DNA of 64,000 nt. Origin: an uncultured beta proteobacterium. Its GTDB lineage: Bacteria > Pseudomonadota > Gammaproteobacteria > Burkholderiales > Burkholderiaceae_F. Below the pieces are notes generated by a model. The model was not told the origin of the DNA and searched no databases. It was given only the letters and a program-made list of their open reading frames with translations. The stretch is taken from positions 12,593 to 76,592 of the forward strand of contig CAVPDC010000024.1 of NCBI GenBank assembly GCA_963702595.1, in the 5' to 3' direction. Both the position numbers and the translations under genes were made by a program. Numbering within the stretch: position 1 is the stretch's first letter; each line of letters begins with the position of its first letter. Of the stretch, positions 29,860-49,369 are shown in pieces.

Positions 29860-31757
29860 TGAACGTTCCGAAGGACGGCCGAACCCGGACCGAGGGCGCG
29901 GCACGCGCCGCTCGCCCTGTGCGGATCTCTGCCGTCAACGACTTCGTCGTCAAGTTTGCCAACGTCAATGGCTCCGGATCGGCCTCGGCCAACGAGCTGT
30001 TCGCCCGGAGCATCCTGCGCATGGGTGTTCCGGTGTCGCCGCGCAACATCTTTCCCTCGAATATCCAGGGCTTGCCGACCTGGTACGAAGTTCGAGTCAC
30101 CGAACAGGGGCATCTCGGGCGGCGCGGTGGGGTCGACCTGATGGTGGCGATGAACCCGCAGACCTGGGACCGCGACCTCAAGGAAATCGAACCCGGCGGC
30201 TACCTGCTGTACGACTCGACCCGCCCGACGCCGCCGAGCCGCCTGAGGGACGACATCTACATACTGCCGGTGCCGCTCACCGAGATCGCCGCAGCGAAGT
30301 TCGCCGATCCCAAGGAACGCCAGCTGCTGAAGAACATCATGTACGTTGGCGTGCTGGCGGCCACACTCGGCATCGAGCCTGAGGTCATCGCCCAACTGCT
30401 CGGCGAGCAGTACAAGGGCAAGGACCGGCTGGTCAAGCCCAACCTCGAAGCGTTCATGACGGGCCTGCACTACGGCCGCGAGCACCTCGAAGACGCGACT
30501 CAACTGCGGATTGTGCGCAGCGACAAGGTCGGCGACCGGATCTTCGTCGAAGGCAATGCGGCGACTGCGCTTGGCTGCGTCTACGGGGGCGCCACCGTCT
30601 GCGCCTGGTATCCGATCACGCCATCGACCTCGGTGGCCGAGGCGTTCCAGAAGTACTGCGCCAAGTTTCGCGTCGACGCTGCCACCGGACGCAACAAGTA
30701 CGCGGTGGTGCAGGCCGAGGACGAGCTGGCGTCCATCGGCATGGTGATCGGCGCCGGCTGGAACGGCGCGCGGGCGTTCACGGCCACCTCGGGCCCCGGC
30801 GTGTCTCTGATGACCGAGTTCATCGGCCTCGCGTACTTCGCCGAAGTGCCGGCGGTGATCATCAACGTGCAGCGCGGCGGACCGTCGACCGGAATGCCGA
30901 CGCGCACGCAGCAGTCGGACCTGCTCGCCTGTGCCTACGCCTCGCATGGCGATACCAAGCATGTACTGCTCTTTCCCGAGGACCCGCACGAGTGCTTCGA
31001 GTTCTCCGCCGCCGCTCTCGACCTGGCCGAGCGCCTGCAGACGCCGGTGTTCCTGATGACGGACCTCGACATCGGCATGAACCATCGGCTGTGCCGGCCG
31101 TTCAAGTGGGACGACACCCGGCGCTACGACCGCGGCAAGGTGATGGACACCGCCACGCTCGAATCCGGTGCCGACTTCGGCCGCTACCTCGACGTCGACG
31201 GTGACGGCATTCCCTACCGGACACTGCCGGGCTCGCATGCGACACGCGGCGCGTACTTCACGCGCGGCTCGACCAAGGACGCTTACGCGCGCTATTCCGA
31301 GGTCGGCTCCGACTACATCTACAACATGGAGCGGCTGCTGCGGAAGTTCGACACCGCCAGAGCACTGGTGCCGCAGCCGATCATCGGGCGCGCGCAAGGC
31401 AAGGCCGCCGCCGGCGTCATCTACTACGGCTCCACCAGCCCGGCGATGGCCGAAGCGCTCGCCCTGCTGCGCGCACAGGACGTCCAACTGGACCACCTGC
31501 GCGTGCGCGCCTTTCCGTTTCCGGACTCCGTCCAGGACTTCATCGCCCGCCACGAGACCGTGTTCGTCGTCGAGCAGAACCGCGATGCACAGTTGCGCAC
31601 GCTGCTGGTCAACGAACTCGGGATCGACCCCGCCCGGCTCGTGCCCGTCCTGCACTACGACGGCACGCCGATCACCGCGCGCTTCATCGTCAACGCTGTC
31701 GCGGAACGCGTGCAGGCGCGCAACGTGCGTGCACTCAAGCCCGGCAAGGCGGCCTGA
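29859..31757 (+). CDS. korA: 2-oxoacid:ferredoxin oxidoreductase alpha subunit (fused gamma+alpha domains)
   Basis: 632 aa. VNGSGSASAN gamma-domain motif. YPITPST and GPSTGMPT motifs. TGATG overlap with the upstream gene. Confidence 0.9.
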   Translation: MNVPKDGRTRTEGAARAARPVRISAVNDFVVKFANVNGSGSASANELFARSILRMGVPVSPRNIFPSNIQGLPTWYEVRVTEQGHLGRRGGVDLMVAMNPQTWDRDLKEIEPGGYLLYDSTRPTPPSRLRDDIYILPVPLTEIAAAKFADPKERQLLKNIMYVGVLAATLGIEPEVIAQLLGEQYKGKDRLVKPNLEAFMTGLHYGREHLEDATQLRIVRSDKVGDRIFVEGNAATALGCVYGGATVCAWYPITPSTSVAEAFQKYCAKFRVDAATGRNKYAVVQAEDELASIGMVIGAGWNGARAFTATSGPGVSLMTEFIGLAYFAEVPAVIINVQRGGPSTGMPTRTQQSDLLACAYASHGDTKHVLLFPEDPHECFEFSAAALDLAERLQTPVFLMTDLDIGMNHRLCRPFKWDDTRRYDRGKVMDTATLESGADFGRYLDVDGDGIPYRTLPGSHATRGAYFTRGSTKDAYARYSEVGSDYIYNMERLLRKFDTARALVPQPIIGRAQGKAAAGVIYYGSTSPAMAEALALLRAQDVQLDHLRVRAFPFPDSVQDFIARHETVFVVEQNRDAQLRTLLVNELGIDPARLVPVLHYDGTPITARFIVNAVAERVQARNVRALKPGKAA

Positions 31758-31767
31758 GGGGACCAAA

Positions 31768-32823
31768 ATGACGTATCTCGCCAAGCCGCGCTTGCACCAC
31801 CCCGCATTGCCGACCAATGCGCTCGGTCACACACGGCGCGACTACGAAGGCAAGATCTCTACGCTGTGTGCCGGGTGCGGCCACGACTCGATCTCGGCGG
31901 CGATCATCCAGGCGTGCTGGGAACTGTCGATCGAACCGCACCGCGTGGCCAAGCTGTCGGGCATCGGCTGTTCCTCGAAGACGCCGGACTACTTCCTGGG
32001 CATCTCGCATGGCTTCAACTCGGTCCACGGCCGCATGCCCTCGGTCATGACCGGTGCGAATCTTGCCAACCGGGACCTCATCTACCTGGGCGTATCGGGC
32101 GATGGTGATTCGGCGTCGATCGGCCTCGGCCAGTTTGCGCACCTGATCCGGCGCGGCGTCAACATGACCTATATCTGCGAGAACAACGGGGTCTACGGGC
32201 TGACCAAGGGCCAGTTCTCGGCCACCGCCGACCGTGGCTCCAAATCCAAGCGCGGGGCGGTCAACCGTGACGCTGCGATCGACATGGTGTCGCTGGCGCT
32301 GCAACTCGGCATCACCTATGTCGCGCGCAGCTTCTCAGGCGACAAGGACCAGCTCGTGCCGCTGATCAAGGGCGCGCTCAGCCACCGCGGTGCCGCGCTG
32401 CTCGACGTCATCAGCCCATGCGTGGCATTCAACAACCACGCCGGCAGCACCAAGAGCTACGACTACGTGCGCGAGCACAACGACGCCGTCAACCGTCTCG
32501 ACTTCATGCCGCGGCGCGAAGGCATCGTGGCCTCGTACGAGCCGGGCGAGGTCATCGAGATCACGCAGCACGACGGCAGCCGGTTGCGGCTGCGCAAGCT
32601 CACGGACGGCTTCGATCCGGGTGACGCGCTGGCGGCGATCAGCCACATCCACCAGCACCACGCGCGCGGCGAGATCGTCACGGGCCTGCTGTACGTCGAT
32701 CCGTCGGCCGACGACCTGCACGAGCACCTGAACACGGTGCCCACCCCATTGAACCGGCTGACGGAGACCGACCTCTGTCCGGGGTCTGCCGCGCTTCAAC
32801 GGCTGAACGCCGATCTCGCCTGA
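31768..32823 (+). CDS. korB: 2-oxoacid:ferredoxin oxidoreductase beta subunit (TPP-binding)
   Basis: 351 aa. CAGCGHDS cluster motif and TPP motif GDGDSASIG...ENNGVYGLTKGQ. Confidence 0.9.
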   Translation: MTYLAKPRLHHPALPTNALGHTRRDYEGKISTLCAGCGHDSISAAIIQACWELSIEPHRVAKLSGIGCSSKTPDYFLGISHGFNSVHGRMPSVMTGANLANRDLIYLGVSGDGDSASIGLGQFAHLIRRGVNMTYICENNGVYGLTKGQFSATADRGSKSKRGAVNRDAAIDMVSLALQLGITYVARSFSGDKDQLVPLIKGALSHRGAALLDVISPCVAFNNHAGSTKSYDYVREHNDAVNRLDFMPRREGIVASYEPGEVIEITQHDGSRLRLRKLTDGFDPGDALAAISHIHQHHARGEIVTGLLYVDPSADDLHEHLNTVPTPLNRLTETDLCPGSAALQRLNADLA

Positions 32824-33027: not shown

Positions 33028-33975
33028 ATGGCGCAGGCGAATGGCGCACAGGGATTCGAGATACTTGCGCGTGAGGACTACTCGGACGTCACCTACATGC
33101 TGGAGGTGGCCCACCCGATGATGGCGAAGGCCGCCAAGCCCGGCCAGTTTGTCATCGTCATGGAGCATGAGCACGGCGAGCGCATCCCGCTCACCATCGC
33201 CGACTTCGACCGCGAGCGCGGCACGATCACGCTGGTTATCCAGGCCGTCGGCAAGACCACCAAGGAGATGCAGGCCAGCTGCAAGGTCGGCACGCGGCTC
33301 TTCGCGATGGTCGGTCCGATGGGCATTCCGAGCCACATCGGTACCGCCAAGAAAGTGATCTGTGTCGGTGGTGGTCTCGGCGTCGCACCGGTTTACCCGC
33401 AGGCGCGCGCCTACAAGGAAAGTGGCGCCTACGTCATCGGCGTGGTCGGCTTCCGCAACAAGGACCTGATGTTCTGGCAGGACAAGTTCGCAGCGGTCTG
33501 CGACGAACTGATCGTCTGCACCGACGACGGTTCCGCCGGCATCAAGGGCCTCGTCACCGAAGGGATCAAGCAGGCCGTCGCCAGGCACTCTGATATCGAC
33601 GAAGTCGTGGCGATCGGACCGCCGATCATGATGAAGGGCTGCTCAGAGGCCACACGGGTGCACGGTATCAAGACGATGGTGAGCCTGAACCCCGTGATGG
33701 TCGACGGTACTGGCATGTGCGGCGGCTGCCGAGTCAAGGTTGGCGATCAGGTCAAGTTCGCGTGCGTCGACGGTCCCGACTTCGATGGCCACCAGGTCGA
33801 CTTCGACGACCTGATGTCGCGGCTGGTGCGCTACAAGCGCGCGGAGCACGACGCCATGGATCGCTGGCAGGAGTCGTGCAGGATCCGCGCCGACAAGGTG
33901 GTAGACCTCAAAACTGCGGTTCTCGGCGCCGACGCGGAAGTGCCGATCGACGTCCAGCCCAGCACCGACGGCTGA
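33028..33975 (+). CDS. nfnA: NfnA-like FAD/[2Fe-2S] subunit (sulfide dehydrogenase / PyrK-like, ferredoxin:NADP oxidoreductase small partner)
   Basis: 315 aa. PyrK-type fold (RIPLTIADFD, VGGGLGVAP) and a C-terminal CGGCRV...FACVDGPDF cluster motif. Confidence 0.8.
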   Translation: MAQANGAQGFEILAREDYSDVTYMLEVAHPMMAKAAKPGQFVIVMEHEHGERIPLTIADFDRERGTITLVIQAVGKTTKEMQASCKVGTRLFAMVGPMGIPSHIGTAKKVICVGGGLGVAPVYPQARAYKESGAYVIGVVGFRNKDLMFWQDKFAAVCDELIVCTDDGSAGIKGLVTEGIKQAVARHSDIDEVVAIGPPIMMKGCSEATRVHGIKTMVSLNPVMVDGTGMCGGCRVKVGDQVKFACVDGPDFDGHQVDFDDLMSRLVRYKRAEHDAMDRWQESCRIRADKVVDLKTAVLGADAEVPIDVQPSTDG

Positions 33976-33991: not shown

Positions 33992-35496
33992 ATGGCGACC
34001 GCCAAGAAGAAAACGATCCGCACGATTCCGCAGGAGCGGACACCGATGCCGGAGCAGGACCCGCAGGTGCGGGCCCGCAACTTCGAGGAGGTGGCCTGCG
34101 GCTACCGGCTCGAGGACGCGCTGCGTGAGGCCGAGCGCTGCCTGCACTGCCCCGATGAGCCGTGCGTTCGCGGCTGCCCGGTCAGCATCGACATTCCGGC
34201 GTTCATCAAGAAGATCAGCGAGAAGCACTATCACGGCGCCTACGAGATCATCACCGACACTAACCTGCTGCCTTCCGTCTGCGGCCGCGTCTGCCCGCAG
34301 GAAAACCAGTGCGAAGGCGTGTGCACGGTCGGCGAGACACTCGAACCCGTGGCCATTGGCCGGCTCGAACGCTTCGTCGGCGACATGGCCATCGCAGAAG
34401 GATGGGAGAACGTTCCCTACATCGAGCCTTCAGGGTACAGGGTGGGCATCGTCGGCGCCGGGCCGGCCGGAATGGCGTGCGCCGCTGACATGGCCAAGGC
34501 CGGCTGCGAGGTCATCGTCTACGAAGCGTTCCACACACCGGGTGGCGTGCTGAAGTACGGCATCCCGGACTTCCGCCTTCCCAACGACGTCATCGATGCC
34601 GAGATCCAGAAGCTGCGCAACCTCGGCGTGCGTTTCGAGTGCAACACGCTGGTCGGCCGGCTCTTCACGATCGAGCAGATGGTGACCGAGATGGGCTTCC
34701 ATGCCGTGTTCATTGGTACGGGGGCGGGTTATCCGAGTTTCATGGGCATACCCGGCGAGTCGCTCAATGGCGTGCTGTCCGCCAATGAATTGCTCACACG
34801 CTGCAATCTGATGCGTGCGCGAGACTTCCCCAACTTCGATACGCCGCTGCAGCCGGGCAAGCACGTCGCCGTCATCGGTGCGGGCAACACGGCGATGGAC
34901 GCGCTGCGCGTGTCGCTGCGCCTGGGCGCCGAGTCGGTCCACTGCATCTACCGCCGCTCGAAGAAGGAAGCACCGGCACGCGTCGAGGAGATCCACCACG
35001 CGGAGCAGGAGGGAGTCGACTTCAACTGGCTGACCGCCCGGTCGAGATCCTGGGCGACAAGAGCAACAACGTGCGAGCGCTGCGCTGCGTGAAAATGGAA
35101 CTCGGCGAACCCGACGACTCGGGGCGACGTCGGCCGGTCGTCGTCCCCGGCAGCGAGTTCGAGTTCGAGGCCGACATGGTCGTGTTCGCCATCGGCACGA
35201 ATGCCAATCCCATCCTCGGCCAGACCTCAAAACTCAAGCTCAACAAGTGGGGCTACATCGCCACCGACGACAGCCTCGCCACGTCGATGTCCGGCGTCTG
35301 GGCCGGCGGCGACATCGTCACGGGCGCGGCCACGGTCATCCAGGCGATGGGCGCGGGCCGCAGGGCTGCTCGCGCGATGAAGGCCTACCTCGGCCTGCGC
35401 GACAGCGATGCCGTCTACGACACCGGGGCCGGCGGATCGCTCTTCGGCATTCCGCGCGAAGAGCACGGCTTTGCGCAGATCCGCGTCGCCCGCTAG
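33992..35496 (+). pseudogene. nfnB: NfnB-like GltD-family NADPH flavoprotein, interrupted by a 1-nt frameshift near 35036-35040 as sequenced
   Basis: Track ORFs 33992..35092 and 35071..35496 are two halves of one GltD/NfnB homologue. Restoring one C in gcccg gives ...DFNWLTAPVEILGDKSNNVRALRCVKMELGEPDDSGRRRP..., and 1505+1 nt makes 502 codons. Confidence 0.8.
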
Positions 35497-35535: not shown

Positions 35536-37428
35536 ATGAGCGCAGTCCTCGAACGCCCGTCGGCCACGGGCAAGGCCGGCACCAAGCCGGCGGTGAAGTT
35601 GCCCGAGCACATCGTTGAGGTTATCAGCGACTCGGGCGAAGGCGCCCAGCGCTGTGGCCAGGCATTCGCCTCGATTGCCGCTCGCAGCGGCAACGGCATC
35701 TGGACCGTGGAGATCATTCCCGCCGAGATCCAGCCGCCGGCGCGCAGCGTGGCCGGTGCCAGCGGCATCCGCATCCGCGTGGGCTCCAAGCATGTCAACA
35801 ACGGCGGCGACGAGACCGACCTCGTCGTTGCTTTCAACGAGCAGGTGTTGCTGGGACGGGTGCGCGCCGGCGAGCTCAAGCAGGGCGCGACGATCCTGCT
35901 GGAGAACATCTGGGCCGAACACCGTGACCCGGCCGTCGTGAAGTCCTACACCGACGCGGTGAAGGCACTGAAGGAGTCCGGGTTCCGCGTCATTGACCTG
36001 CCGCTCGAGAAGGAGTGCCGCTCCCTGATGAGCGACCCGCGCCGCGGCAAAAACATGTTCGTGCTCGGAGTGCTGGCGAGCATCTACAGCCTCGACCTGC
36101 AGCTGGCGCGCGACCAGATTGCGCTGACCTTCGGCAAGAAGGACCAGAAGGTCATCGACTCCAATGTCAAGCTGATGGAAGCCGGCTTCGCCTGGGGCGA
36201 AGCCAACCTCGACTTCAAGTACGAAATACCGGCCGAGAAGTCCAACGTGCCGCAGATCGTTGTCAACGGCAACACGGCGATCGCGCTCGGTGTCATCGCC
36301 TCGGGAATGGACATCTGTGCGATGTATCCGATCACGCCAGCCACGTCGGCCTCGCATTACCTGTCGGAGTGCTTCGAGAAGGTGGGCGGCATCGTGCACC
36401 AGGCCGAGGACGAAATTGCCGCCTGCGCCTTCGCGATCGGCGCCTCCTACGCTGGCCGCTGCGCGGTGACCATCACGTCCGGGCCGGGCTACTCACTGAA
36501 GCAGGAAGGCATCGGGCTGGCGGTGATGGCGGAGATCCCGCTGGTCGTTGTCAACGTGCAGCGCGGCGGGCCCAGCACCGGGCAGCCGACGAAGGTCGAA
36601 CAAGCTGATCTGCTGACCTCGATCTACGGCAGCCACGGCGACGCACCCAAGGTGGTGCTCGCAACGACCAGTATCGAGGACTGCTTCTATTCGATGATCA
36701 CGGCGCGCAAGATCGCCGAGACGTTCGGCATGGTGGTCGTGGTCCTGACCGACGCCAGCCTTGCGACCGCCCAGCAACCGTTTCCCCGCCCGATGTTCAG
36801 CGAGGAGTGGCTGGCACCGCCGATCGACCAGTCGCCTTTGCCCGAGGGCGCGAAGCCCTATGACTGGGACAAGATCACGGGCATCGCACGGCGGTTCTCG
36901 CCTGGGCAGCCGAACGGCATGCATACCGTGACCGGCCTTGCGCACGACCGTGCGAGCAAGGTGGCATACGACCCGATCATCAACGAGGAAGGTCTGCGCA
37001 TGCGCAGCCTGAAGCTGGCGACGCTGCAGAAGACGCTGAAGACGCCGCCGGTGTTCGGCGACCCGGAAGGCGACCTGCTGGTGGTCGGCTGGGGCAGCAC
37101 GCAGGGCGTCATCGAGGAGGCGGTGCAGCGACTGCGCGACGAAGGGCTCAAGGTTTCCGCGCTGCAGATGCGCTTCATCCAGCCAATGCCGTCGGGCATC
37201 AAGGACATCCTCAAGCGTTTCAGGAAAGTGATGACGGTCGAAGGGACGTGGGCCGATCGACCGCACGAAGACGAGATGATCGACGAAGAAAACCGCCGCT
37301 ACGCGCCGCTGGCGATGATGCTGCGCGCGCGCACTCTCGTCGACGTCGACTGCTGGACCGAGGCCAAGGGCCAGCCGATCAAGCCGGGACAGGTGGTCCA
37401 GGCTCTCCGCGCCAAGCTGGCCGAATAA
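35536..37428 (+). CDS. Second 2-oxoacid:acceptor oxidoreductase alpha subunit (mycobacterial KorA / Hydrogenobacter ForA-like)
   Basis: 630 aa. MYPITPATSAS and RGGPSTGQPTK motifs. RBS AAGGAAGAAG. Confidence 0.9.
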   Translation: MSAVLERPSATGKAGTKPAVKLPEHIVEVISDSGEGAQRCGQAFASIAARSGNGIWTVEIIPAEIQPPARSVAGASGIRIRVGSKHVNNGGDETDLVVAFNEQVLLGRVRAGELKQGATILLENIWAEHRDPAVVKSYTDAVKALKESGFRVIDLPLEKECRSLMSDPRRGKNMFVLGVLASIYSLDLQLARDQIALTFGKKDQKVIDSNVKLMEAGFAWGEANLDFKYEIPAEKSNVPQIVVNGNTAIALGVIASGMDICAMYPITPATSASHYLSECFEKVGGIVHQAEDEIAACAFAIGASYAGRCAVTITSGPGYSLKQEGIGLAVMAEIPLVVVNVQRGGPSTGQPTKVEQADLLTSIYGSHGDAPKVVLATTSIEDCFYSMITARKIAETFGMVVVVLTDASLATAQQPFPRPMFSEEWLAPPIDQSPLPEGAKPYDWDKITGIARRFSPGQPNGMHTVTGLAHDRASKVAYDPIINEEGLRMRSLKLATLQKTLKTPPVFGDPEGDLLVVGWGSTQGVIEEAVQRLRDEGLKVSALQMRFIQPMPSGIKDILKRFRKVMTVEGTWADRPHEDEMIDEENRRYAPLAMMLRARTLVDVDCWTEAKGQPIKPGQVVQALRAKLAE

Positions 37429-37451: not shown

Positions 37452-38438
37452 ATGGGCTCCGCACTCAGCCAATTCATCATCAAGCTGCACGAAGAACATC
37501 GCAGCCTCGAGGACTACCAGGGCGGCATACCGCGGTGGTGCAGCGGCTGCGGCGACAACGCCATCCTCACCGCGGTCCAGCGCCTGTGCCGCGACGAGAA
37601 CCTCGCTCCCGAGCGCACGGTGTTCGTGTCCGGGATCGGCTGCTCGAGCCGCTTCCCGCACTACATGAAGACCTACGGCTTCCACGGCATCCACGGCCGC
37701 GCGTTCCCGATCGCCGAGGGCGTGAAGATGGCGCGCCCGGACCTCGCCGTTTTCGTCAACACGGGCGACGGCGACTGCTGCTCGATCGGAGCCGCGCACT
37801 GGATCCACGCGATCCGGTACAACATGAACCTGACCGTGATCCTGCACGACAACCAGATCTATGGCCTGACGAAGAAGCAGGCGTCGCCCACCTCGCAGAT
37901 CGGCACGAAGAGCAACACGACGCCGCGCGGCAGCGTGCTCGAAGCGATGAACCCGCTGACGGTTACCCTCGGCGTGCAGAACGCCTCGTTCGTCGCACAG
38001 GGTGTCGACTGGATGCCCGAGGTGCTGTACGACATCATCGCCCGGGCCTACAGGCACCGTGGCTTCTCGTTCGTGCGCATCATCCAGCGCTGCCCTGAGT
38101 GGCTGCCTAAGACTTTCGAGGCGTGGGTGCACGACCCGGGCAAGACGCTGCTGCTCACGCACGCTAACGGCCTCACGCCGAGCGCCGAGACGAGCCGCAT
38201 TTACAAGAACCAGCGCGAGCACGATCCGCTGGACATCCACCGGGCGCGCGAGATCGCGTCGTCCGTGGACCCGATTCCTGTCGGCATTCTTTACCACGAC
38301 CCCAGCGTTCCTTGCTACGAGGACCTCCGCGGCGCCGGCGCGCCTCGCACCGCGGAAACGATCCGCGCCGGGCTCGACAGGGAATTCGACAAATTCACGA
38401 TCTGGCCGGACGAGGCACGCGAACCGCGCGCCGCCTGA
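37452..38438 (+). CDS. Second 2-oxoacid:acceptor oxidoreductase beta subunit (TPP-binding)
   Basis: 328 aa from the ATG at 37452. CSGCGDNA motif. TPP motif GDGDCCSIG...HDNQIYGLTKKQ. Confidence 0.9.
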   Translation: MGSALSQFIIKLHEEHRSLEDYQGGIPRWCSGCGDNAILTAVQRLCRDENLAPERTVFVSGIGCSSRFPHYMKTYGFHGIHGRAFPIAEGVKMARPDLAVFVNTGDGDCCSIGAAHWIHAIRYNMNLTVILHDNQIYGLTKKQASPTSQIGTKSNTTPRGSVLEAMNPLTVTLGVQNASFVAQGVDWMPEVLYDIIARAYRHRGFSFVRIIQRCPEWLPKTFEAWVHDPGKTLLLTHANGLTPSAETSRIYKNQREHDPLDIHRAREIASSVDPIPVGILYHDPSVPCYEDLRGAGAPRTAETIRAGLDREFDKFTIWPDEAREPRAA

Positions 38439-38466
38439 GCTGCCCCACTCATCGAGGTTCGCCGCC

Positions 38467-40699
38467 ATGGACATGGCCGCCAAGTTTCAGGACCAGACGG
38501 TCTTTCACATGACCGGCAAGCGCGCGGGCGAAGGGCTCGCGGAGCTGGCGCCCGGTCTTCGCCCTGCCCTCCTCGCGGCCTACCGGGACCTGGGCCGGCT
38601 GCGCTACGACTATCCGGTCGTACTGCTGGAGCGCGACGCAGGCAGCCAGTATGTCAAGTCGCTATCGACCCTAATGGGCGAGCTCATCGCCGGCATCGCA
38701 CCGCGAGGCATCGAGGGCGAGCGCGTGCGCAAGCAACTGCTACGACTCGAGCACGAGATCCGCATCCTGTCCGCCAGCGGCGCACGGGGCTCGCTCAAGG
38801 ACCTGTGGCTGCGGGCCGTGGACAAGGCCGCGGGCCGCGACGACGACATGCGGATCGCTTTGCGTGACGCCGTCGCGTCGCTCGAGGACGATGGCGAGGT
38901 CATCGACTGCGACCGGACGCTTGCCTCGCGCTTCCTGTCGCGCGCCTGGCACAACGTCCACGCCGAGAAGGCGACCGAGTTTCGCAGCCAGGTCGATCAC
39001 CTGGTGCGCAAACTGTCGGACATCCTGCGCGCCGCCTTCGCGCATTCACAGGCCGGCCAGCAGCCTGAGGCGCTGAAGTCGGGGTTCGGCTCGCTGCACG
39101 ACTCGGTCTTCGACTTCTCCGCGATGTCGCGCCTAGTGGCGCGCAATGTGCCCCAGGACGAGCTGCCGCCGCAACGGAGGCAACGAATCGAGTGGGCGCT
39201 CGGGGTCCTTCGCAGCCAGCCGTTTTATCCCGATCCGACCCGAACTGGTGCCGAGGCAACCTACGGGTTCGTCTTTAGCGACTGCGCGACGGCGATCGAG
39301 GCGCACCGCACGCGCCTGCCGAAGCTGGTCGAGGTGGTAAAGGCGGTGGCCATCGCCGACCTTGAGGCTCGCGGCGGCTATGTCGAGGCCGATCACGACG
39401 CGTTCTTCGAACGCTTCGACGAGCATGCGCTGACGGCGGACGACCTCGCGCAGTTCCCCGACTATCTCGTCTGCATTCCCCCGGAGCGCAACGATGCGCC
39501 GGAAAATGCAATGCTGATGGAAATGCTGTCGGCCGGCATGCCTGTGAAGGTCCTGGTGCAGCACACCGACCTGCTGGAAGAAGCCGCGATTGGCCAGGGC
39601 CACTTTGCGTTCGGCATCCGCAGCGCGCGGCTGGCGACAACGGCCATGGGGCTGGGCGGCATGTTCGTCATTCAGTCCACGGTCTCGAACCTCTACGCCT
39701 TGCGCGACCGCGTGCGCCGTGGCATGAGCTGCCGCGGCCCAGCGCTGTTCAGCCTTTTTACCGGATCGCCGGCCGAAGCAAGCGACCTGGCGCCTTACCT
39801 GACCGCAGCGGCAGCGATGAAGTCGCGTGCGTTCCCGGCGTTTACCTACGACGCCGACGCCGGCACCAACTGGGCCACGCGCTTCTCATTCGAGAACAAC
39901 CGCAATCCGGAGGAGGACTGGCCCGGTGAGGAGTTCGCATACGCCGACGACGACCTGCAACGTGTGCAGGAACGGGTCCGCTTCACCTACGCCGACTTCG
40001 TGCTGTGCGACCGACGCCATGCGCATCACTTCGCCGTGGTGCCGCGCGACCGCTGGACCACCGCGATGGTGCCGGTCGCGGACTGGCTGGCGCTGTCGGA
40101 GAAGGACGCCGCCGAGCGCATCCCATTCGCGCTAGCCGTTGACGATGCGAACCGGCTGCACCGCGTCATCGTCGACTCGCGCCTGATGCAGGCGACGCGG
40201 CGCTGCGTGCTGCTCTGGCACCGGCTGCAGGAGCACGGCGGCATCCACAACTCGCACGCCGAGCAGGCGCTGGCGCGGGAGAAGGCGGCGTGGGAAGAAC
40301 AGAAGCGGCAGGAGATTGAAGCACTGAAGCAGGCCGCGCCTGCAGGAGGCCCAGGCACCGCCCCGGCCGAGGTTGCCGCCGCGCCCGCCACCGCCTCGGC
40401 CGTGCCCGCGGCACCGACAGAGGCGGCCGCCGAGGCGACGCGGCCGCCGTCGGACGAGCCCTGGATCGAAACGATCCGCTGCTCGAGCTGCAACGAGTGC
40501 CAGAACATCAACGACCGGCTCTTCGCGTACAACGACAACAAGCAGGCCTACTTCAAGGACCTCGGCGCCGGGACCTACCGGCAGATCGTCGAGGCGGCCG
40601 AGGCCTGCCAGGTAGCGATCATCCACCCGGGCAAGCCGAAGAATCCTGAACGAACCCGGGCTCGAGGAATTGCTGGAGCGCGCGAAGCCGTTCCTGTAG
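38467..40699 (+). pseudogene. 743-aa uncharacterised protein X: large novel N-terminal region, Ala/Pro linker and a C-terminal single-cluster ferredoxin domain. A 1-nt frameshift lies 50-80 nt before its stop as sequenced
   Basis: ATG at 38467, 28 nt after korB2. CSSCNECQ...EACQVAIIHPG matches the CxxCxxC...C ferredoxin pattern. After about 40645 the GC3-rich frame switches (+1) to LNEPGLEELLERAKPFL* with TAG at 40697-40699. 2233-1 nt makes 744 codons. Confidence 0.7.
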
Positions 40700-40722
40700 A
40701 GATACGTGGCACCGGGCCGGCG

Positions 40723-41430
40723 ATGAAGATCCTGCGCTCGGACCTCGCGCACGGTCATGAACTTGAAGGCGCGGTCGTTGTCATCGACGTGCTGCGGGCC
40801 TTCACGACCGCGGCCTATGCATTTGCCGCCGGCGCCCGATCGATGATCGCGGCCGACTCGCTCGACAGTGTCGCGCGGCTGCGCAGCCGCTACCCGGCGT
40901 CGATGACGATGGGGGCCCTGCCCGGCGGTCGGCCCGTTCCCGGAATGGACTTCGGCAACTCGCCTGCCGAAATCATCGGTCGCGACTTGTCGGGCATCAC
41001 GCTCATCCAGTTCACCGCTGGCGGAGTCAAGGGGCTGGTGGATTGTGACCACGCCACCGAGGTGCTCGCGGGCAGCCTGGTCTGTGCCCGCTCGACGGCG
41101 CGCTATATCCGCACGCTGGCGCCGTCCACCGTCACGCTCGTCATCACCGGACTGTGGACCGACCGCGACGGCGACGAGGACCACGCCTGTGCTGACCTGA
41201 TCGAGGCCTACCTGCGCGGGGAATGTCCGGAAGTCACCGCGTACGAAGAACGCGTGCGCCAGTCGGACTTCGGCCGCCGGTTCGGCGACAGCACCCACCC
41301 GCACCTGCCGGCCGCCGATCTCAACCTGTGCGCCGCCGCCGACCGTTTCGGATTCGCGATGCCAATGCGTCGGACCGGTCACGGACTGGTCATCGAACCG
41401 GTGGCGCTGGCGTTTCTGCCGTCCGCCTGA
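40723..41430 (+). CDS. 2-phosphosulfolactate phosphatase (ComB) family protein
   Basis: 235 aa from the ATG at 40723. The VVVIDVLRAFTTAAYA motif is typical of the ComB family (PF04029-like, as recalled). Confidence 0.72.
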   Translation: MKILRSDLAHGHELEGAVVVIDVLRAFTTAAYAFAAGARSMIAADSLDSVARLRSRYPASMTMGALPGGRPVPGMDFGNSPAEIIGRDLSGITLIQFTAGGVKGLVDCDHATEVLAGSLVCARSTARYIRTLAPSTVTLVITGLWTDRDGDEDHACADLIEAYLRGECPEVTAYEERVRQSDFGRRFGDSTHPHLPAADLNLCAAADRFGFAMPMRRTGHGLVIEPVALAFLPSA

Positions 41431-42049: not shown

Positions 42050-43366
<1,317 letters not shown>

Positions 43367-43393
43367 GGTCTTTTTCCCGGGTTCGAGGTGAGA

Positions 43394-43660
43394 TCAGACG
43401 GACCGGAGTCCGTCCAGGACAGTGCGAACGGCATTGTGATCGAGAGTGCCGGCCGGCTCTTTGCGCGCCAGCAAAAGGTCGAGAAGTTCGTTGTCCGGGA
43501 GGTCCAGGAGCGCCTCCAGTGCCAGGACGTCGTCGACCGTGAGGCTCGCCTCATGCCGGTCCAGGTAACGGGTGACGATGATGTCGTTTTCCAGCAACCC
43601 CCGCCTTGCGCGCCAGCGCAGCCTGCGCCTTTCGAGATCGCCGAGCACGACGGCGCTCAC
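43394..43660 (-). CDS. sdhE: Succinate dehydrogenase FAD assembly factor SdhE (DUF339)
   Basis: The GTG at 43660 lies 2 nt after the sdhB stop. 88 aa with RLRWRARRGLLENDII...LLDLPDNELLDLLL, typical of SdhE. Confidence 0.8.
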   Translation of the reverse strand: MSAVVLGDLERRRLRWRARRGLLENDIIVTRYLDRHEASLTVDDVLALEALLDLPDNELLDLLLARKEPAGTLDHNAVRTVLDGLRSV

Positions 43661-43662
43661 GG

Positions 43663-44424
43663 TCAGACTTCGCGGCGAACCAGCATGTCGCGGATCTTGC
43701 CGATCGCCCGGGTCGGATTCAGCTCTTTGGGGCAGACGTCCACGCAATTCATGATCGTGTGGCAGCGGAACAGCCGGTAGGGGTCGTTCAGGTTGTCGAG
43801 CCGCTCGTTGGTAGCCTGGTCACGGCTGTCGGCGATGAAGCGGTACGCCTGCAGCAGTCCGGCGGGGCCGACGAACTTGTCCGGGTTCCACCAGAAACTC
43901 GGGCAGCTGGTCGAGCAGCAGGCACACAGGATGCACTCGTAGAGGCCGTTCAGTTCCTCGCGCTCCTCGGGCGACTGCAGCCGCTCCTTCTCCGGCGGCG
44001 GCGTGTCGTTGATGAGGAACGGCTTGATCGAGTTGTACTGCTTGAAGAACTGCGACATGTCGACGATCAGGTCGCGGATCACCGGCAGGCCCGGGAGCGG
44101 CCGCAAGACGATCGGCTCCTTCAGATCACGCAGGTTGGTAATGCACGCCAGGCCGTTCCTGCCGTTGATGTTCATCGCGTCCGAACCGCACACGCCCTCG
44201 CGGCAGGACCGGCGGAAGGCGACGCTGTCGTCGAAGTCCGCCTTGATGCGCATCAGCGCATCCAGCAGCATCTTGTCGGTGGGCTGCAGCTGGACCTCAA
44301 GCTTCTGCATGTACGGCTTTGGGTCCTTGTCCGGGTCGTAGCGGTAGATCTCGAATCGAACCGTCCGCACCCCCGTCGCGGCTCCTGCCACCGCATTGCT
44401 CTCAACGTTGCTGTTCGCCGTCAT
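43663..44424 (-). CDS. sdhB: Succinate dehydrogenase iron-sulfur subunit
   Basis: 253 aa with three Cys clusters (CREGVCGSDAMNING, CILCACCSTSCP, CHTIMNCVDVCP). Confidence 0.95.
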   Translation of the reverse strand: MTANSNVESNAVAGAATGVRTVRFEIYRYDPDKDPKPYMQKLEVQLQPTDKMLLDALMRIKADFDDSVAFRRSCREGVCGSDAMNINGRNGLACITNLRDLKEPIVLRPLPGLPVIRDLIVDMSQFFKQYNSIKPFLINDTPPPEKERLQSPEEREELNGLYECILCACCSTSCPSFWWNPDKFVGPAGLLQAYRFIADSRDQATNERLDNLNDPYRLFRCHTIMNCVDVCPKELNPTRAIGKIRDMLVRREV

Positions 44425-44489
44425 GCTTCGACCTCAGTAAGAACCAGTCGCGCCACCATCGACCGGCCACGCGCCCTGCCGTTGTGATG

Positions 44490-44522
44490 AAAAAAATCGT
44501 CTGGCTCCGCCAGCGAATTTTT
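44490..44522. terminator. Bidirectional intrinsic-terminator-like element inside the sdhA-sdhB spacer (A7 - 8-bp bulged hairpin - T5)
   Basis: aaaaaaa tcgtctggc tcc gccagcga attttt. On the minus (sdh) strand the hairpin is followed by seven T. Confidence 0.4.
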
Positions 44523-44532
44523 CTAACCCTAG

Positions 44533-44562
44533 CGCGCAAAAGTAGGGGTGCACTTTTGCGCG
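44533..44562. repeat. Perfect 11-bp inverted repeat (hairpin, 8-nt loop) just downstream of the sdhA stop
   Basis: cgcgcaaaagt-aggggtgc-acttttgcgcg, read directly from the sequence. Confidence 0.6.
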
Positions 44563-44566
44563 GCTC

Positions 44567-46342
44567 CTAGAACGTTCGCTTCTTCGGTTCGAAGGTCGGG
44601 ACCGTGAGCGGCTTCATGTTCACCGGCTTGTAGTCGAGCCGGTTGCCATCCGAAAAAAACAGCGTGTGCTTGATCCAGTGCGTGTCGTCGCGCTCCGGGA
44701 AGTCGTCGCGCGCGTGCGCGCCGCGGCTCTCGGTGCGGGCCGCCGCGGATACGATCGTCGCCTTGGCGGTCTCCACCAGGTTGTCGAGTTCCAGCGCCTC
44801 GATGCGCGCCGTATTAAAAACCTTGGACTTGTCGCCGATCGCCACATTTTTGGCGCGCTCGGCCAGTTCCATGATCTTGGCTACGCCCTCGTCGAGCAGC
44901 TTGCCGGTGCGGAATACACCGCAGTGGGTCTGCATCGCCTTGCGGATGGCATTGGCGACGTCCTGCACACGTTCGCCCTTGTCGCGCGCGTCGAGTGCCG
45001 CCAAGCGCGCCGCCGTCGCATCGCCGGCGTCCCCTGGCAGGGGACGATGCTCCTGCGCCTTGAAGTTCTGACCGACGATGTGATTGCCGGCCGCGCGGCC
45101 GAACACCACGAGGTCGAGCAGCGAGTTCGTGCCGAGGCGGTTCGCACCATGCACCGAAACGCACGCGCATTCACCGATGGCGTACAGGCCCTCGATAACC
45201 GTGTTCGGGTTGCCGGCTTTCGGGGCGACGACCTGGCCGTGGTAATTGGTTGGTATGCCGCCCATCTGATAGTGAATCGTCGGAACGACCGGGATCGGCT
45301 CCTTGATCGGATCGACGTTGGCGAACTTGATCGCGATCTCGCGGATCGATGGCAGCCGCTTCATGATCGTATCGGCGCCGAGATGGTCGAGCTTCAGCAG
45401 AACGTGGTCCTTGTGCGGGCCACAGCCGCGCCCTTCCTTGATCTCCTGGTCCATGCTGCGCGAGACAAAGTCGCGCGGCGCGAGGTCCTTCAGCGTCGGC
45501 GCATAGCGCTCCATGAAGCGTTCGCCATTGCAGTTGAGCAGGATTCCGCCTTCGCCACGCACGCCTTCGGTGATCAGCACGCCCGCGCCGGCCACGCCGG
45601 TCGGGTGGAACTGCCAGAACTCCATGTCCTCGAGCGGCAGCCCCGCGCGCGCCACCATGCCCATGCCGTCGCCGGTATTGATGTAGGCGTTGGTCGAGGC
45701 GTCCCAGATGCGCCCGGCGCCACCGGTCGCCAGCACCGTGACCTTCGATTCGAAGATCATCACGTCGCCGGTTTCCATCTCGAGCGCGACGACGCCGACC
45801 ACGGCGCCTTCCGCGTCGCGTATCAGGTCGAGCGCCATCCATTCGACGAAGAACTGTGTGCGCTCACGCACGTTGCGCTGGTACAGCGTGTGCAGCAGTG
45901 CGTGTCCGGTGCGGTCCGCGGCCGCGCAGGCGCGCGGCACCGGCTTTTCACCAAAATTCGCGGAGTGCCCGCCAAACGGCCGTTGGTAGATCGTGCCGTC
46001 CGGGTTACGGTCAAACGGCATGCCGAAGTGCTCGAGTTCGTACACGACCTTCGGGGCCTCGCGGCACATGAACTCGATCGCGTCCTGGTCGCCCAGGTAG
46101 TCCGAGCCCTTGACCGTGTCGAACATGTGCCAGAGCCACGTGTCCTCGGTCATGTTGCCGAGCGACGCGCCAATGCCTCCCTGCGCGGCCACCGTGTGCG
46201 AGCGGGTCGGGAAGACTTTCGACAGCACCGCGACGTTCAGGCCAGCCTGCGCCAGCTGCAGGGAGCACCGCATGCCCGAGCCACCCGCGCCGACGATCAC
46301 CGCGTCAAAGCGACGACGGGCCACTTTCGATGCAACCGCCAT
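44567..46342 (-). CDS. sdhA: Succinate dehydrogenase flavoprotein subunit
   Basis: 591 aa. VIVGAGGSGMR FAD motif, the histidine-flavinylation region RSHTVAAQGG, and the conserved C-terminus. Confidence 0.95.
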   Translation of the reverse strand: MAVASKVARRRFDAVIVGAGGSGMRCSLQLAQAGLNVAVLSKVFPTRSHTVAAQGGIGASLGNMTEDTWLWHMFDTVKGSDYLGDQDAIEFMCREAPKVVYELEHFGMPFDRNPDGTIYQRPFGGHSANFGEKPVPRACAAADRTGHALLHTLYQRNVRERTQFFVEWMALDLIRDAEGAVVGVVALEMETGDVMIFESKVTVLATGGAGRIWDASTNAYINTGDGMGMVARAGLPLEDMEFWQFHPTGVAGAGVLITEGVRGEGGILLNCNGERFMERYAPTLKDLAPRDFVSRSMDQEIKEGRGCGPHKDHVLLKLDHLGADTIMKRLPSIREIAIKFANVDPIKEPIPVVPTIHYQMGGIPTNYHGQVVAPKAGNPNTVIEGLYAIGECACVSVHGANRLGTNSLLDLVVFGRAAGNHIVGQNFKAQEHRPLPGDAGDATAARLAALDARDKGERVQDVANAIRKAMQTHCGVFRTGKLLDEGVAKIMELAERAKNVAIGDKSKVFNTARIEALELDNLVETAKATIVSAAARTESRGAHARDDFPERDDTHWIKHTLFFSDGNRLDYKPVNMKPLTVPTFEPKKRTF

Positions 46343-46345
46343 GAA

Positions 46346-46723
46346 TCAGACTCTCCAGAGAATCTGCACGGACCATACCGCGCAGAACACCAGCCAGAGC
46401 ACCGTCAGCGTCTGCAGAGCCACCCGGATCCCTGTGGGCTTGACATAGTCCATCCAGATATCACGCACGCCGATCCACGCGTGATAAAAAAGCGCGAACA
46501 GCGCGACCAGCGTCACGATCTTCATCCAGACCGGCACGAACACTCCTGCCCACGCGTCGTAGCCGCCGGCGGCACCGAGCAGCAGGCGCAGAACGACGAG
46601 CAGCGAGAACGCGGACAGGATGATCGCCGTCAGTCGCTGCAGCAGGAATGCGCCGACGCCCTTGTGCGCGCCAACGACGATGCGTTTGGAACCGATGCCC
46701 TCGGGCGACGCGGTCGTATTCAT
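46346..46723 (-). CDS. sdhD: Succinate dehydrogenase hydrophobic membrane anchor subunit
   Basis: 125 aa from the ATG at 46723 (MNTTASPEGIGSKRIVVGAHKG...). Three TM helices. 1-nt overlap (TGATG) with sdhC. The track ORF's upstream extension is spurious. Confidence 0.85.
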   Translation of the reverse strand: MNTTASPEGIGSKRIVVGAHKGVGAFLLQRLTAIILSAFSLLVVLRLLLGAAGGYDAWAGVFVPVWMKIVTLVALFALFYHAWIGVRDIWMDYVKPTGIRVALQTLTVLWLVFCAVWSVQILWRV

Positions 46724-47139
46724 CAAAACACTCCAAACAGCTTGAGCGCAACCAGCACCGTCAGCGGTAGGCTGATCCAGAACACGGCCAGCGCACTGGT
46801 GCGTGCGGCCGACTTTTCCACTCCAACGTGCAGGTCGAGCAGCAGGTAGCGGATGCCCGCGATGAGATGGTGGAGAAAGGCCCAGATCAGCACTAGCAGC
46901 ACCAGCTTGCCGAACCAATGCGACGCGACTTCGACCAGACGCGCAAAGCTGAGTTCGGACATCAGGCTCAGATCGAACAACCACAGAAGCAGGGGCAACG
47001 CGAGAAACAGCAGCGCTCCGCTTACGCGGTGCAGGATCGACACCATGCCAGGCGGCGGCAGCTTGTACTGCAGGATCTGCGTGACGTGGATGTTGCGGAT
47101 CTGCGGACGGGCTTTGCCGGCGACTGGAGTGGAGCTCAT
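46723..47139 (-). CDS. sdhC: Succinate dehydrogenase cytochrome b556 subunit
   Basis: 138 aa. SILHRVSG heme-ligand region. Three TM helices. Confidence 0.9.
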   Translation of the reverse strand: MSSTPVAGKARPQIRNIHVTQILQYKLPPPGMVSILHRVSGALLFLALPLLLWLFDLSLMSELSFARLVEVASHWFGKLVLLVLIWAFLHHLIAGIRYLLLDLHVGVEKSAARTSALAVFWISLPLTVLVALKLFGVF

Positions 47140-47205
47140 TGTTATTGCGATCTTGGCGCCCTGGAGAGACGCAGTATTCTGAACGAATTGATGCGACGGA
47201 CCAAA

Positions 47206-47970
47206 TCAGGTAAGCGTGTTGCGATAGTGGTAATGCGTCGTCTCGTACAGGCCGCGGCGTACTTCGACAGGCCGATCTCCGTATGAATACGACACGCGTT
47301 CAACCATCAGCAACGGAGAGCGTTCGTCCACGCCGAGCAGTTCTGCCGCGCCGCGCTCGGCGCTGACCGCCCTTAGGTTTTCTTCCGCGCGAATCATCCG
47401 CGTACCGAACTCGGTCTCGAAAAGACCATAAAGTGGACCCTTGTATTCGGCGAGCCGCTCTGCGGTAAGTCCCTTGAACTGCGCACCCGGCAGCCAGATT
47501 TCCTCTACCACGATCGGATCGGCACCGAAGCTCAGTAACCGGCGCAGGTAAACAACCGCATCGCCGGTTCGCAGTTCGAGCAGGCGCGCGATATCGGCCG
47601 ACGCGCGGGCGCGCCGGCACTCGAGGAAGCGGCTCTGCGGCGCAGCGGGCTCGCCTTCGTCCGGAATGACACGCAGGAAACGAAACTGCGCGCGCGGCTC
47701 ATGATGGGTGGCAACGAAAGTGCCCTTCCCCTGCCGGCGCACGAGCAGGTTCTCCGCCGCCAGTTCGTCGACCGCCTTGCGTACGGTCCCCTGGCTGACC
47801 TGGAAACGCGCGGCAAGCTCGATCTCGCTCGGAATGAGTTCACCCGGCTTCCATTCGCCCTGATCCAGGCTCTTCAGCACCAGATCCTTGATCTGGCGAT
47901 ACAGCGGCGAGAACACCGGCGGCCGCGCAGGCCTAGCCGGGACCTCAGTCGAGTCGTCGTTCGTGACCAC
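47206..47970 (-). CDS. GntR-family transcriptional regulator, HutC subfamily (wHTH + UTRA domain)
   Basis: 254 aa. LPSEIELAARFQVSQGTVRKAVDEL HTH. UTRA-like C-terminus. Sits in the conserved position between mdh and sdhC known from beta-proteobacteria. Confidence 0.85.
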   Translation of the reverse strand: MVTNDDSTEVPARPARPPVFSPLYRQIKDLVLKSLDQGEWKPGELIPSEIELAARFQVSQGTVRKAVDELAAENLLVRRQGKGTFVATHHEPRAQFRFLRVIPDEGEPAAPQSRFLECRRARASADIARLLELRTGDAVVYLRRLLSFGADPIVVEEIWLPGAQFKGLTAERLAEYKGPLYGLFETEFGTRMIRAEENLRAVSAERGAAELLGVDERSPLLMVERVSYSYGDRPVEVRRGLYETTHYHYRNTLT

Positions 47971-48025
47971 GGGGTGATTTCAGCACAGGGAAAGCATTGT
48001 TGTGTGATCTGCATTAAATCATATG

Positions 48026-48037
48026 TCTTATATAAGA
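48026..48037. promoter_or_regulatory. Candidate GntR/HutC operator: the perfect palindrome TCTTATATAAGA inside an AT-rich island
   Basis: tcttat|ataaga is self-complementary and extends to 16/18 over 48023-48040. It lies 56 nt upstream of the gntR GTG and 310 nt upstream of mdh. It is the only strongly AT-rich stretch (48011-48050) that I noticed in the window. Confidence 0.4.
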
Positions 48038-48347
48038 TATAATTATTTCTCCCGATCAGCCAGTTGACTCCAGTCTGCGCGGCTTGCCCGATGCCACTTG
48101 CCCAACTTCCCTCGCCGACCCGGTCGCACCGTCCCTGCCGGCACCGAGGCACGACGTCCTGCAGACACGGGACTGCTCGCGGCACTGAGCAGGATCACTG
48201 CGCACGCCGACTCGCAGCAGTACACTCGACCGGCTTTCCCGCCCGCTTTTGCGCGCGGGTCCGCCATTCCGATTTCACGGTTGTCGTTCTGCGTCCGCCC
48301 GTGTCCGAATTCATCATCACCACTCGCACTCCCAGGAGAACATTGCC

Positions 48348-49334: not shown

Positions 49335-49369
49335 GCGCGACCCAACGCCGCACACGAGGAGACACGCGC

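Follow-up and report, generated by a model that had tools for sequence, protein, structure and literature searches.

Two-subunit 2-oxoacid:ferredoxin oxidoreductases (OFORs) have a single [4Fe-4S] cluster and depend on an external ferredoxin, as in the structures of the M. marinus 2-oxoglutarate:ferredoxin oxidoreductase (OGOR) and the Sulfolobus OFOR. How aerobes supply and protect such a low-potential carrier is poorly understood. Four-subunit OFORs and single-chain pyruvate:ferredoxin oxidoreductases (PFORs) have a dedicated Fe-S module, the delta subunit or domain V, whose two rigidly bound [4Fe-4S] clusters take electrons from the cluster next to thiamine diphosphate (ThDP). The KorABC enzyme of Azoarcus evansii, the subject of work by Ebenau-Jehle, Boll and Fuchs in 2003, is said to be a three-subunit 2-oxoglutarate:NADP+ oxidoreductase. 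NfnAB (NfnSL) is an NADH-dependent ferredoxin:NADP+ oxidoreductase. Ferredoxin, its third substrate and low-potential partner, is used at the [4Fe-4S] clusters of its GltD-like subunit; such enzymes do not necessarily bifurcate (PMC8097209; PMC12318220), and NfnII-type relatives, which share its domains, do not (PMC8097209). Here we compare these systems with gene X, located at 38467-40699 of a 64,000-nucleotide (nt) stretch of DNA (the window) from an uncultured beta proteobacterium (assembly GCA_963702595.1, contig CAVPDC010000024.1, positions 12,593 to 76,592). Gene X directly follows genes for a two-subunit OFOR, KorA2B2, and its product of ~743 amino acids (aa) consists of a body derived from PFOR domain VI, a flexible linker, a predicted [4Fe-4S] ferredoxin domain and a conserved tail. 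We regard the structural and evolutionary identity of X as a derivative of PFOR domain VI as very probable. On balance, though with much less assurance, we favor a role for X as a non-catalytic docking body whose swinging, predicted [4Fe-4S] arm links KorAB to an NfnAB-type NAD(P)H flavoprotein. Systems of the known kind pair an OFOR with a ferredoxin module of its own that connects it to NAD(P)H; X differs from them by its single predicted cluster, its long tether and its recycled enzyme domain. X, its domains and the other genes of its operon are all on the plus strand.

The body of X begins with a mostly helical region (aa 1-325; 38467-39441), which was modelled with a predicted local distance difference test (pLDDT) score above 90 and has no Pfam match or universal cysteine. 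It continues with an alpha/beta core (aa 326-590; 39442-40236) that profile, Foldseek and hhalign comparisons relate to the ThDP-binding PP domain, which is domain VI of PFOR and the beta subunit of OFORs. Pfam and NCBIfam searches gave nothing significant over the first ~660 residues of X. A profile built from 30 close homologues missed PFOR, and only a profile from a diverse family alignment (108 sequences, 33-76% identical to X) reached it. In the Protein Data Bank (PDB) this profile matched the PFOR of M. thermoacetica (6cin_A; E=1.5e-4) and that of D. africanus (1b0p_A; E=0.093). Profile positions 360-486 aligned with PFOR residues ~975-1118 (978-1118 in 6cin_A), which are the C-terminal half of domain VI, and the aligned region covered the VLDTEVYSNTGGQ, GPSL..AY and GYWPLYRYNP stretches.

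Structure comparison led to the same enzymes. An AlphaFold2 model of X from the 108-sequence alignment had a pLDDT of 92.6 and a predicted template modelling (TM) score of 0.84. Foldseek searches of the PDB placed Moorella PFOR chains at ranks 1-7 (probability, 1.00; E about 2e-3; ~384 aligned columns), followed by D. africanus PFOR, oxalate oxidoreductase beta, M. acetivorans PFOR beta and Sulfolobus OFOR beta. No unrelated structure in the PDB ranked above the PFOR and OFOR beta families. An earlier model from a shallow alignment (pLDDT, 68.9) found the same families, with marginal PFOR matches. In both sequence and fold, the X core is homologous to the C-terminal half of domain VI of the single-chain PFORs (1B0P and 6CIN). 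The preliminary description, made from the sequence alone, had called the body unassignable and found no cofactor motif that it could name in the first 640 aa, while remarking on a faint resemblance to the ThDP-binding domain of PFOR. The motif search came to the same result, the resemblance proved to be real homology, and the body could be assigned.

Longer relatives of X add two further lines of support for this descent, making four independent ones in all. Rare long members of the family (P0212, 1460 aa; P0253, 1415 aa; P0220, 1236 aa) have an N-terminal extension that matches Pfam PFOR_II, and medium forms of ~850 aa also exist. Domains I-III are in the same order in the long members as in PFOR; P0212 was colinear with domains I-III of D. 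africanus PFOR (138-350 with 137-347 and 509-566 with 499-556; E=3.4e-5). The PYR domain is present in the long forms but below Pfam detection, PFOR_II being the only domain detected. A homologue search with the N-terminal 657 aa of P0212 returned no matches. At locus L085, the second gene after a long X encodes a giant protein (1527 aa or more) that carries POR_N, PFOR_II and two Fer4 motifs. Residues 994-1460 of this protein aligned with X 154-601 (hhalign probability, 99.94; E=7.6e-37), and the protein aligned with 6cin_A (E=9e-29) in four colinear pieces, namely domains I-II, both halves of domain V, and domain VI (1239-1344 with 6cin_A 1022-1129). From these two alignments, the X-type domain sits at the domain VI position in a PFOR architecture.

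The N-terminal region of X can be placed in part. Residues 154-325 aligned just after the ferredoxin domain V of the L085 paralogue (hhalign probability, 99.9). Residues 1-153 would correspond to the domain IV-V position, judged only by colinearity with the long forms; hhalign of the X family against residues 700-1000 of the paralogue did not place them. The giant PFOR-like protein was encoded at 11708-16288 of L085 and also at 14701-15537 of L083 and 5344-8733 of L088, after an RnfB-like protein in korA-korB-(long X) operons. It forms an uncharacterised PFOR-like family of its own and is the evolutionary bridge between PFOR and X, with an X-type domain VI that lacks GDG.

Unlike PFOR, X lacks the GDG/ThDP-Mg motif, the cysteines of the proximal cluster and the dicluster domain V, and the short form lacks the PYR and gamma domains. 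Motif correspondence was taken from an hhalign comparison with KorB, which was used for this purpose only and which set X 333-341 (YLVCIPPER) over KorB VFVNTGDGD. The ThDP/Mg2+ motif, GDG-X(24-30)-N(N), was not found in X, in agreement with the preliminary description, and the equivalent columns 338-340 (PPE here) were variable among the 108 sequences. The proximal [4Fe-4S] cysteines were also missing, with KorB Cys214 (QRCP) corresponding to X Ser434 (GSP), and no universally conserved cysteine was present in the body among the 108 sequences. The PYR domain was absent from the 743-aa short form. ThDP catalysis by X is very unlikely by these criteria. Because the ThDP and cluster motifs are lost, X is predicted to have no 2-oxoacid oxidation or acyl-CoA carboxylation activity. 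X is a member of the OFOR superfamily by evolution; with GDG, the cluster cysteines and a PYR partner all missing, it should not be classed among the catalytic OFOR subunits.

Relative to PFOR, X adds a tethered C-terminal ferredoxin with a predicted single cluster and a conserved tail. The ferredoxin domain (aa 664-722; 40456-40632) had been recognised in the preliminary description, and Pfam, profile and Foldseek results agreed on the single-cluster Fer4_13 type. The Pfam match to Fer4_13 (PF13370) was marginal at 25.1 bits (cut-off, 24.5). The family profile matched D. africanus ferredoxin I (Fd I; 1dax_A, E=2.8e-5), and this protein alone was found when the single X sequence was compared with the PDB by phmmer (E=0.014). 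The modelled domain superposed on 1fxr_A in Foldseek with a TM-score of 0.84 and a root-mean-square deviation of 0.9 Å over 58 residues. X shares the CxxCxxC...C ligands and the fold with the D. africanus Fd I type (Fer4_13), although proteins of this type are free and ~60 aa long whereas the ferredoxin of X is the C-terminal domain of a 743-aa protein. The fourth cysteine is followed by Q in X and by P in the Fd I type. Cys672 (40480-40482), Cys675 (40489-40491), Cys678 (40498-40500) and Cys714 (40606-40608) were kept in 107-108 of the 108 family sequences, and no other cysteine was universally conserved. Since CxxCxxC has a cysteine at each of its three positions, the pattern would fit a [4Fe-4S] rather than a [3Fe-4S] cluster.

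In the model, an exposed long helix (aa 596-623; 40252-40335) leaves the body and is followed by an Ala/Pro-rich linker (aa 624-663; 40336-40455), which was delimited with the model and the family alignment. Linker residues 634-655 were the only stretch of the model with a pLDDT below 50. The segment from W609 to D663, which holds the linker, varied from 28 to 94 aa across the family (median, 48), was rich in A (26%), E (15%) and P (12.5%), and had zero conserved columns. Because of its low pLDDT, variable length, Ala/Glu/Pro composition and lack of conserved columns, the linker looks like a flexible tether. The preliminary description had likened it to the arms of lipoyl-carrying E2 proteins. 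The disorder and the Ala/Pro-rich composition bear this out, but the likeness is a compositional analogy only. A mobile carrier on an Ala/Pro-rich tether is common to both in concept, without homology, and X has no lipoyl domain. The possibility that X is itself an E2 or lipoyl protein was rejected, as Pfam gave no lipoyl or acyltransferase match. The conserved tail (40633-40699), KPKNP-NEPGLEELLERAKPFL followed by a stop, was recognised from homologues, and its family consensus, P.EPGL.EL..RA.PF, was strongly conserved.

X is encoded at the end of a five-gene operon. The first gene (nfnA-like; 33028-33975) encodes a small subunit with flavin adenine dinucleotide (FAD) and [2Fe-2S], of the sulfide/dihydroorotate-dehydrogenase-like family (Pfam DHODB_Fe-S_bind; NCBIfam NF004862, 381 bits; cut-off, 220). 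The second (nfnB-like; 33992-35496) encodes a GltD-like subunit with two [4Fe-4S] clusters, FAD and an NADPH site (Pfam Fer4_20 and Pyr_redox_2). Its intact homologue in L001, a colinear contig 90% identical to the window from a Burkholderiaceae metagenome-assembled genome (MAG), scored 596 bits against TIGR01316 (cut-off, 472). The pair thus passed the NCBIfam cut-offs for NfnA/SudB and NfnB/SudA. It may be either a bifurcating NfnI type or a plain NADPH:ferredoxin reductase of the NfnII type. This pair, likely the second redox partner of X, had been overlooked in the preliminary description.

The next two genes encode the OFOR. The korA2 product (35536-37428) is an OFOR alpha subunit with gamma, PYR and domain II regions (Pfam POR, POR_N and PFOR_II; TIGR03710, 511 bits; cut-off, 483). 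The korB2 product (37452-38438) is an OFOR beta subunit (Pfam TPP_enzyme_C and PFO_beta_C) with an intact GDGD and four cluster cysteines; C30, C33, C64, C214 and G105-D108 were invariant. Its best PDB matches were StOFOR beta and M. marinus OGOR beta. KorA2 is the partner of KorB2, and together they make up a complete, intact OFOR. The korB2 stop lies 28 nt before the X start. As the preliminary description had stated, the OFOR adjoining X has no ferredoxin subunit. The operon combines an enzyme that reduces ferredoxin with a flavoprotein that uses it, and X provides its sole ferredoxin module.

Synteny was compared in 80 species-level loci, with counts limited to those that had enough upstream DNA. 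The order NfnA-NfnB-KorA2-KorB2-X on one strand was present in all 61 loci with more than 5.6 kb upstream, and KorA2-KorB2-X was present in all 66 loci with more than 3.1 kb upstream. Locus L089, whose X is 36% identical, had the same five-gene order with overlapping stop and start codons. X diverged faster than its partners, with a median identity to the L001 proteins of 56% vs. 77-82% for the other four. Medium and long forms of X were also directly behind KorB, and KorA was upstream wherever the contig reached (type-2 operons). What stays constant next to X is a two-subunit OFOR, joined in Proteobacteria by an NfnAB-type pair; the partners that vary are, without exception, electron-transfer proteins with Fe-S or flavin.

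These results allow a mechanism to be proposed. The PFOR-like body of X would dock on the two-subunit KorA2B2, which has one [4Fe-4S] cluster and no ferredoxin subunit, and the tethered ferredoxin would swing from the KorB cluster to the [4Fe-4S] clusters of the NfnB-like subunit and back. Oxidation of a 2-oxoacid, probably 2-oxoglutarate, would then be wired to NADP(H) without free ferredoxin, and possibly to NAD(H) as well through an Nfn-type bifurcation or confurcation. In reverse, NADPH could drive reductive carboxylation. In favor of such wiring, a paralogous KorC-like fusion encoded in the window shows OFORs of this kind connected to pyridine nucleotides via a built-in ferredoxin module.

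The functional counterparts nearest to X are the delta subunit or domain V of OFORs and the KorC ferredoxin domain. X likely has the same role as the delta subunit and, like it, is encoded with OFOR genes. It differs in having one predicted Fer4_13-type cluster, a 28-94 aa linker segment and a 620-aa PFOR-derived body. In Azoarcus KorABC, a two-subunit OFOR is reportedly connected to pyridine nucleotide by a GltD-like flavoprotein together with a built-in ferredoxin module, as proposed here for X. In KorABC the ferredoxin module (Fer4_7) is fused to the flavoprotein, whereas in the X system the flavoprotein is a two-subunit NfnAB-type pair and the ferredoxin is on a separate, PFOR-derived protein. 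Canonical Nfn works with free ferredoxin, and its genes, unlike the pair in the X operon, do not accompany those of an OFOR. WorABCSL (PMC12318220) is a catalytic oxidoreductase hard-wired to a pyridine-nucleotide module and resembles X in concept without homology; its wires are BfuABC and a polyferredoxin rather than a tethered single ferredoxin.

Several observations weigh against a docking body derived from domain VI and serving NfnAB. The Foldseek E-values were modest (2e-3) and the global TM-scores were low (0.2), the latter because only part of the X chain superposes. The hhalign comparison with KorB, from a six-sequence alignment, gave the right register at low probability (4.8% and 8.8%). 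The NfnAB link is not family-wide because type-2 operons have an RnfB-like Fe-S protein and a giant PFOR-like protein downstream rather than NfnAB upstream. Gene X is frameshifted in this window. The short form has no PYR-domain partner of its own. An acidic pair at the second half of the ThDP motif (D367/D368; T367-D368 here) was kept in 63-75% of family members, and the body has invariant or near-invariant charged or polar residues (R46, D48, Q403, R454, W584, D216, R237, R240, H310 and ESRAFPAF). This conservation exceeds what a passive scaffold would strictly need and could mark a ligand site. Because the acidic pair and many invariant polar residues persist, a residual ligand site is possible.

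X could accordingly be an active enzyme or a ligand binder, in which a remodelled PP pocket holds CoA, succinyl-CoA, NAD(P)H or a ThDP variant and the ferredoxin serves that chemistry. The persistence of the acidic pair would suit this explanation, as would the invariant polar and charged residues and the motifs GPALFSV, ESRAFPAF.YDP, FVLQ and LP.KVLV, which recur across members 33-76% identical. An X-type domain is also present in the giant paralogue, which retains a recognisable PYR domain and the domain V clusters. We nonetheless consider a catalytic or ligand-binding X improbable, given that the GDG columns are not conserved, the short form lacks a PYR domain, the body has no cluster cysteines, X evolves markedly faster than its partners, and the KorA2B2 next door is already a complete, intact OFOR.

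A role for X as a protective, assembly or regulatory partner of KorAB in aerobes, such as an oxygen shield or a redox sensor with the ferredoxin as sensor rather than shuttle, would draw on two further observations. Members of the family occur mainly in Burkholderiales of soil and freshwater and in other lineages that are largely aerobic, and the body corresponds by homology to the portion of PFOR packed against the catalytic core. Domain VII of D. africanus PFOR shields a cluster from oxygen. However, a long, variable, low-complexity tether joined to a canonical four-Cys, low-potential ferredoxin fold has the look of a mobile carrier, and electron transfer is indicated by the company in which X is inherited, namely Fe-S electron-transfer proteins of the NfnAB-like, RnfB-like and other kinds. 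Protection, assembly or regulation as the main role of X seems to us quite improbable, and we retain the swinging-arm docking body as the favored reading.

X belongs to a widespread, unannotated family, and its architecture is not confined to this genome. A word-indexed protein search returned 1582 hits; among the 120 listed, most were about 730-750 aa long and were named 'ferredoxin' or 'hypothetical protein'. With an exhaustive HMMER search, 2058 clusters at 50% identity were recovered at E<=1e-3, and for 859 of these E was below 1e-30. Cluster look-ups for the family gave no informative names. Because of these 1582 hits and 2058 clusters, gene X is, judged by its homologues, a real gene, far beyond chance, and a chance open reading frame (ORF) was rejected. 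In a species scan queried with a 25-sequence alignment, relatives were confirmed in at least 466 species-level genomes among the 600 pattern matches listed (one genome per species). The hosts among these listed matches were mostly MAGs of Burkholderiales and other Betaproteobacteria, with further MAGs from Gammaproteobacteria, Xanthobacteraceae, Gemmatimonadota and Actinomycetota and one isolate, Ideonella sp. A 288. The literature searched in full text yielded no description of the X family or of an nfnAB-korAB-X operon, which is not itself proof of novelty. The architecture had been called novel-looking; this holds insofar as no description was found, but the phyletic survey showed that it is not unique to one genome.

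The reading frame of X in the window is interrupted near its end. Two features support the ATG at 38467: homologues start with the same MDMAAKF, and a GAGG lies 9 nt upstream of it. The peptides quoted in the preliminary description (FPDYLVCIPPERND, GPALFSLFTGSP, SRAFPAFTYDADAGTNWATRFSFENNRNPEEDWP, the Ala/Pro linker, EPWIETIRCSSCNECQNIND and EACQVAIIHPG) are all in the frame of this ATG. The interval 38467-40699, which it had given for X, is 2233 nt long and not divisible by three, and the TAG at 40697-40699 is in the +1 frame relative to the ATG. Its start therefore held and its end did not, unless one T is dropped; a silent change of frame had concealed a 1-nt insertion. Comparison with L001 showed the extra T at 40647 (CCG to CCTG). 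With this T removed, the tail NEPGLEELLERAKPFL is restored and the protein ends in IIHPGKPKNPNEPGLEELLERAKPFL and a stop, as in homologues; the length of ~743 aa rests on this translation, homologue lengths and the indel relative to L001. The frame of ATG 38467 is open from 38002 to 41430 in the window as given, with the first stop at 41430, and reads into a 2-phosphosulfolactate phosphatase-like (ComB-like) gene with an ATG at 40723 (Pfam PF04029, E=5e-31). The in-frame fusion of X and ComB in the window is an artefact of the frameshift, and a true fusion protein was rejected, as no other locus with the IIHPGKP motif was fused. The conserved tail is the part of X that the frameshift takes away.

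A second uncompensated indel, a 1-nt deletion near 35036 (window 35030-35040), splits the nfnB-like gene into ORFs 33992-35092 and 35071-35496, whereas the L001 homologue is intact at 501 aa. Two frameshifts thus fall within the five-gene operon, and none in the other genes aligned to L001 (~14 kb flanking). They are either assembly errors or recent inactivation. If real, they would make this locus a decaying pseudo-operon from which no functional X is made in this genome. The two single-base indels are uncompensated and neither is in a homopolymer, and the window has the only frameshifted tail among the loci with the IIHPGKP motif, where the tail was in frame in all others except L035 (stop lost). 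But two events in ~7.7 kb vs. none in ~14 kb is not significant (roughly p=0.13, an estimate), the two genes are otherwise open throughout and 91-99% identical to relatives, and many close relatives are metagenome-assembly contigs, where indel errors occur. We consider decay of the operon unlikely, with some weight left to it. At L035 (about 12155-12290), no stop follows the conserved ...RAKPFL and the X ORF is extended; L035 and the window were the only anomalies among the loci with this motif.

Other genes adjoin the operon. The ComB-like gene downstream (40723-41430, plus strand) belongs to the 2-phosphosulfolactate phosphatase family, and all its NCBIfam matches were far below cut-offs. 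It followed X in 11 of the 80 loci, the closest relatives only, and is not part of the unit. A paralogous OFOR set lies upstream (28039-32823), consisting of a KorC-like NADPH flavoprotein (28039-29859), KorA1 (29859-31757) and KorB1 (31768-32823). This set resembles the KorABC of Azoarcus evansii. The KorC-like protein combines Fer4_20 and Pyr_redox_2 with a fused dicluster ferredoxin domain, Fer4_7, and its gene shares a TGATG stop/start overlap with korA1. KorB1 and KorB2 were only 32% identical. The set adjoined the X operon in about 24 of the 80 loci. The KorA1-KorB1 intergenic region (window 31632-31768 vs. L001 3066-3303) was ~155 nt shorter in the window, with a gap of 11 nt vs. 237 nt. 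Rfam scans and promoter and terminator scans gave nothing above background.

Directly downstream is a block of tricarboxylic acid (TCA) cycle genes (42050-50251), assigned by colinearity with the annotated L001. It contains citrate synthase (42050-43366, minus strand), SdhE-like, sdhB, sdhA (44567-46342, minus strand), sdhD and sdhC genes, as well as a GntR regulator, malate dehydrogenase and a gene like phosphoenolpyruvate mutase and isocitrate lyase. This block fits a 2-oxoglutarate-related role for the Kor operons.

Taken to its full extent, our proposal is that the X family comprises unrecognised, PFOR-derived pseudo-subunits that weld two-subunit OFORs to NfnAB-type flavin modules, and elsewhere to RnfB-like or giant PFOR-like proteins, by a swinging [4Fe-4S] arm. 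The product would be a self-contained 2-oxoglutarate:NAD(P)+ oxidoreductase, independent of free ferredoxin, of aerobic soil Betaproteobacteria, possibly bifurcating or confurcating, in which, run in reverse, NADPH bifurcation could drive CO2-fixing synthesis of 2-oxoglutarate. We offer this wider picture tentatively, as a possibility with the odds somewhat against it. A PFOR remnant reused to hold a dedicated, tethered ferredoxin, and passed on with an Nfn-type flavoprotein across hundreds of species from soil and freshwater, would represent a new means of joining 2-oxoacid chemistry directly to NAD(P)H and a clear bacterial case of an enzyme domain turned docking scaffold. It would also provide a candidate OFOR-linked bifurcating complex relevant to reverse-TCA-type CO2 fixation and NADPH supply, and the more than 2000 sequence clusters that now go by 'ferredoxin' or 'hypothetical protein' would gain an annotation.

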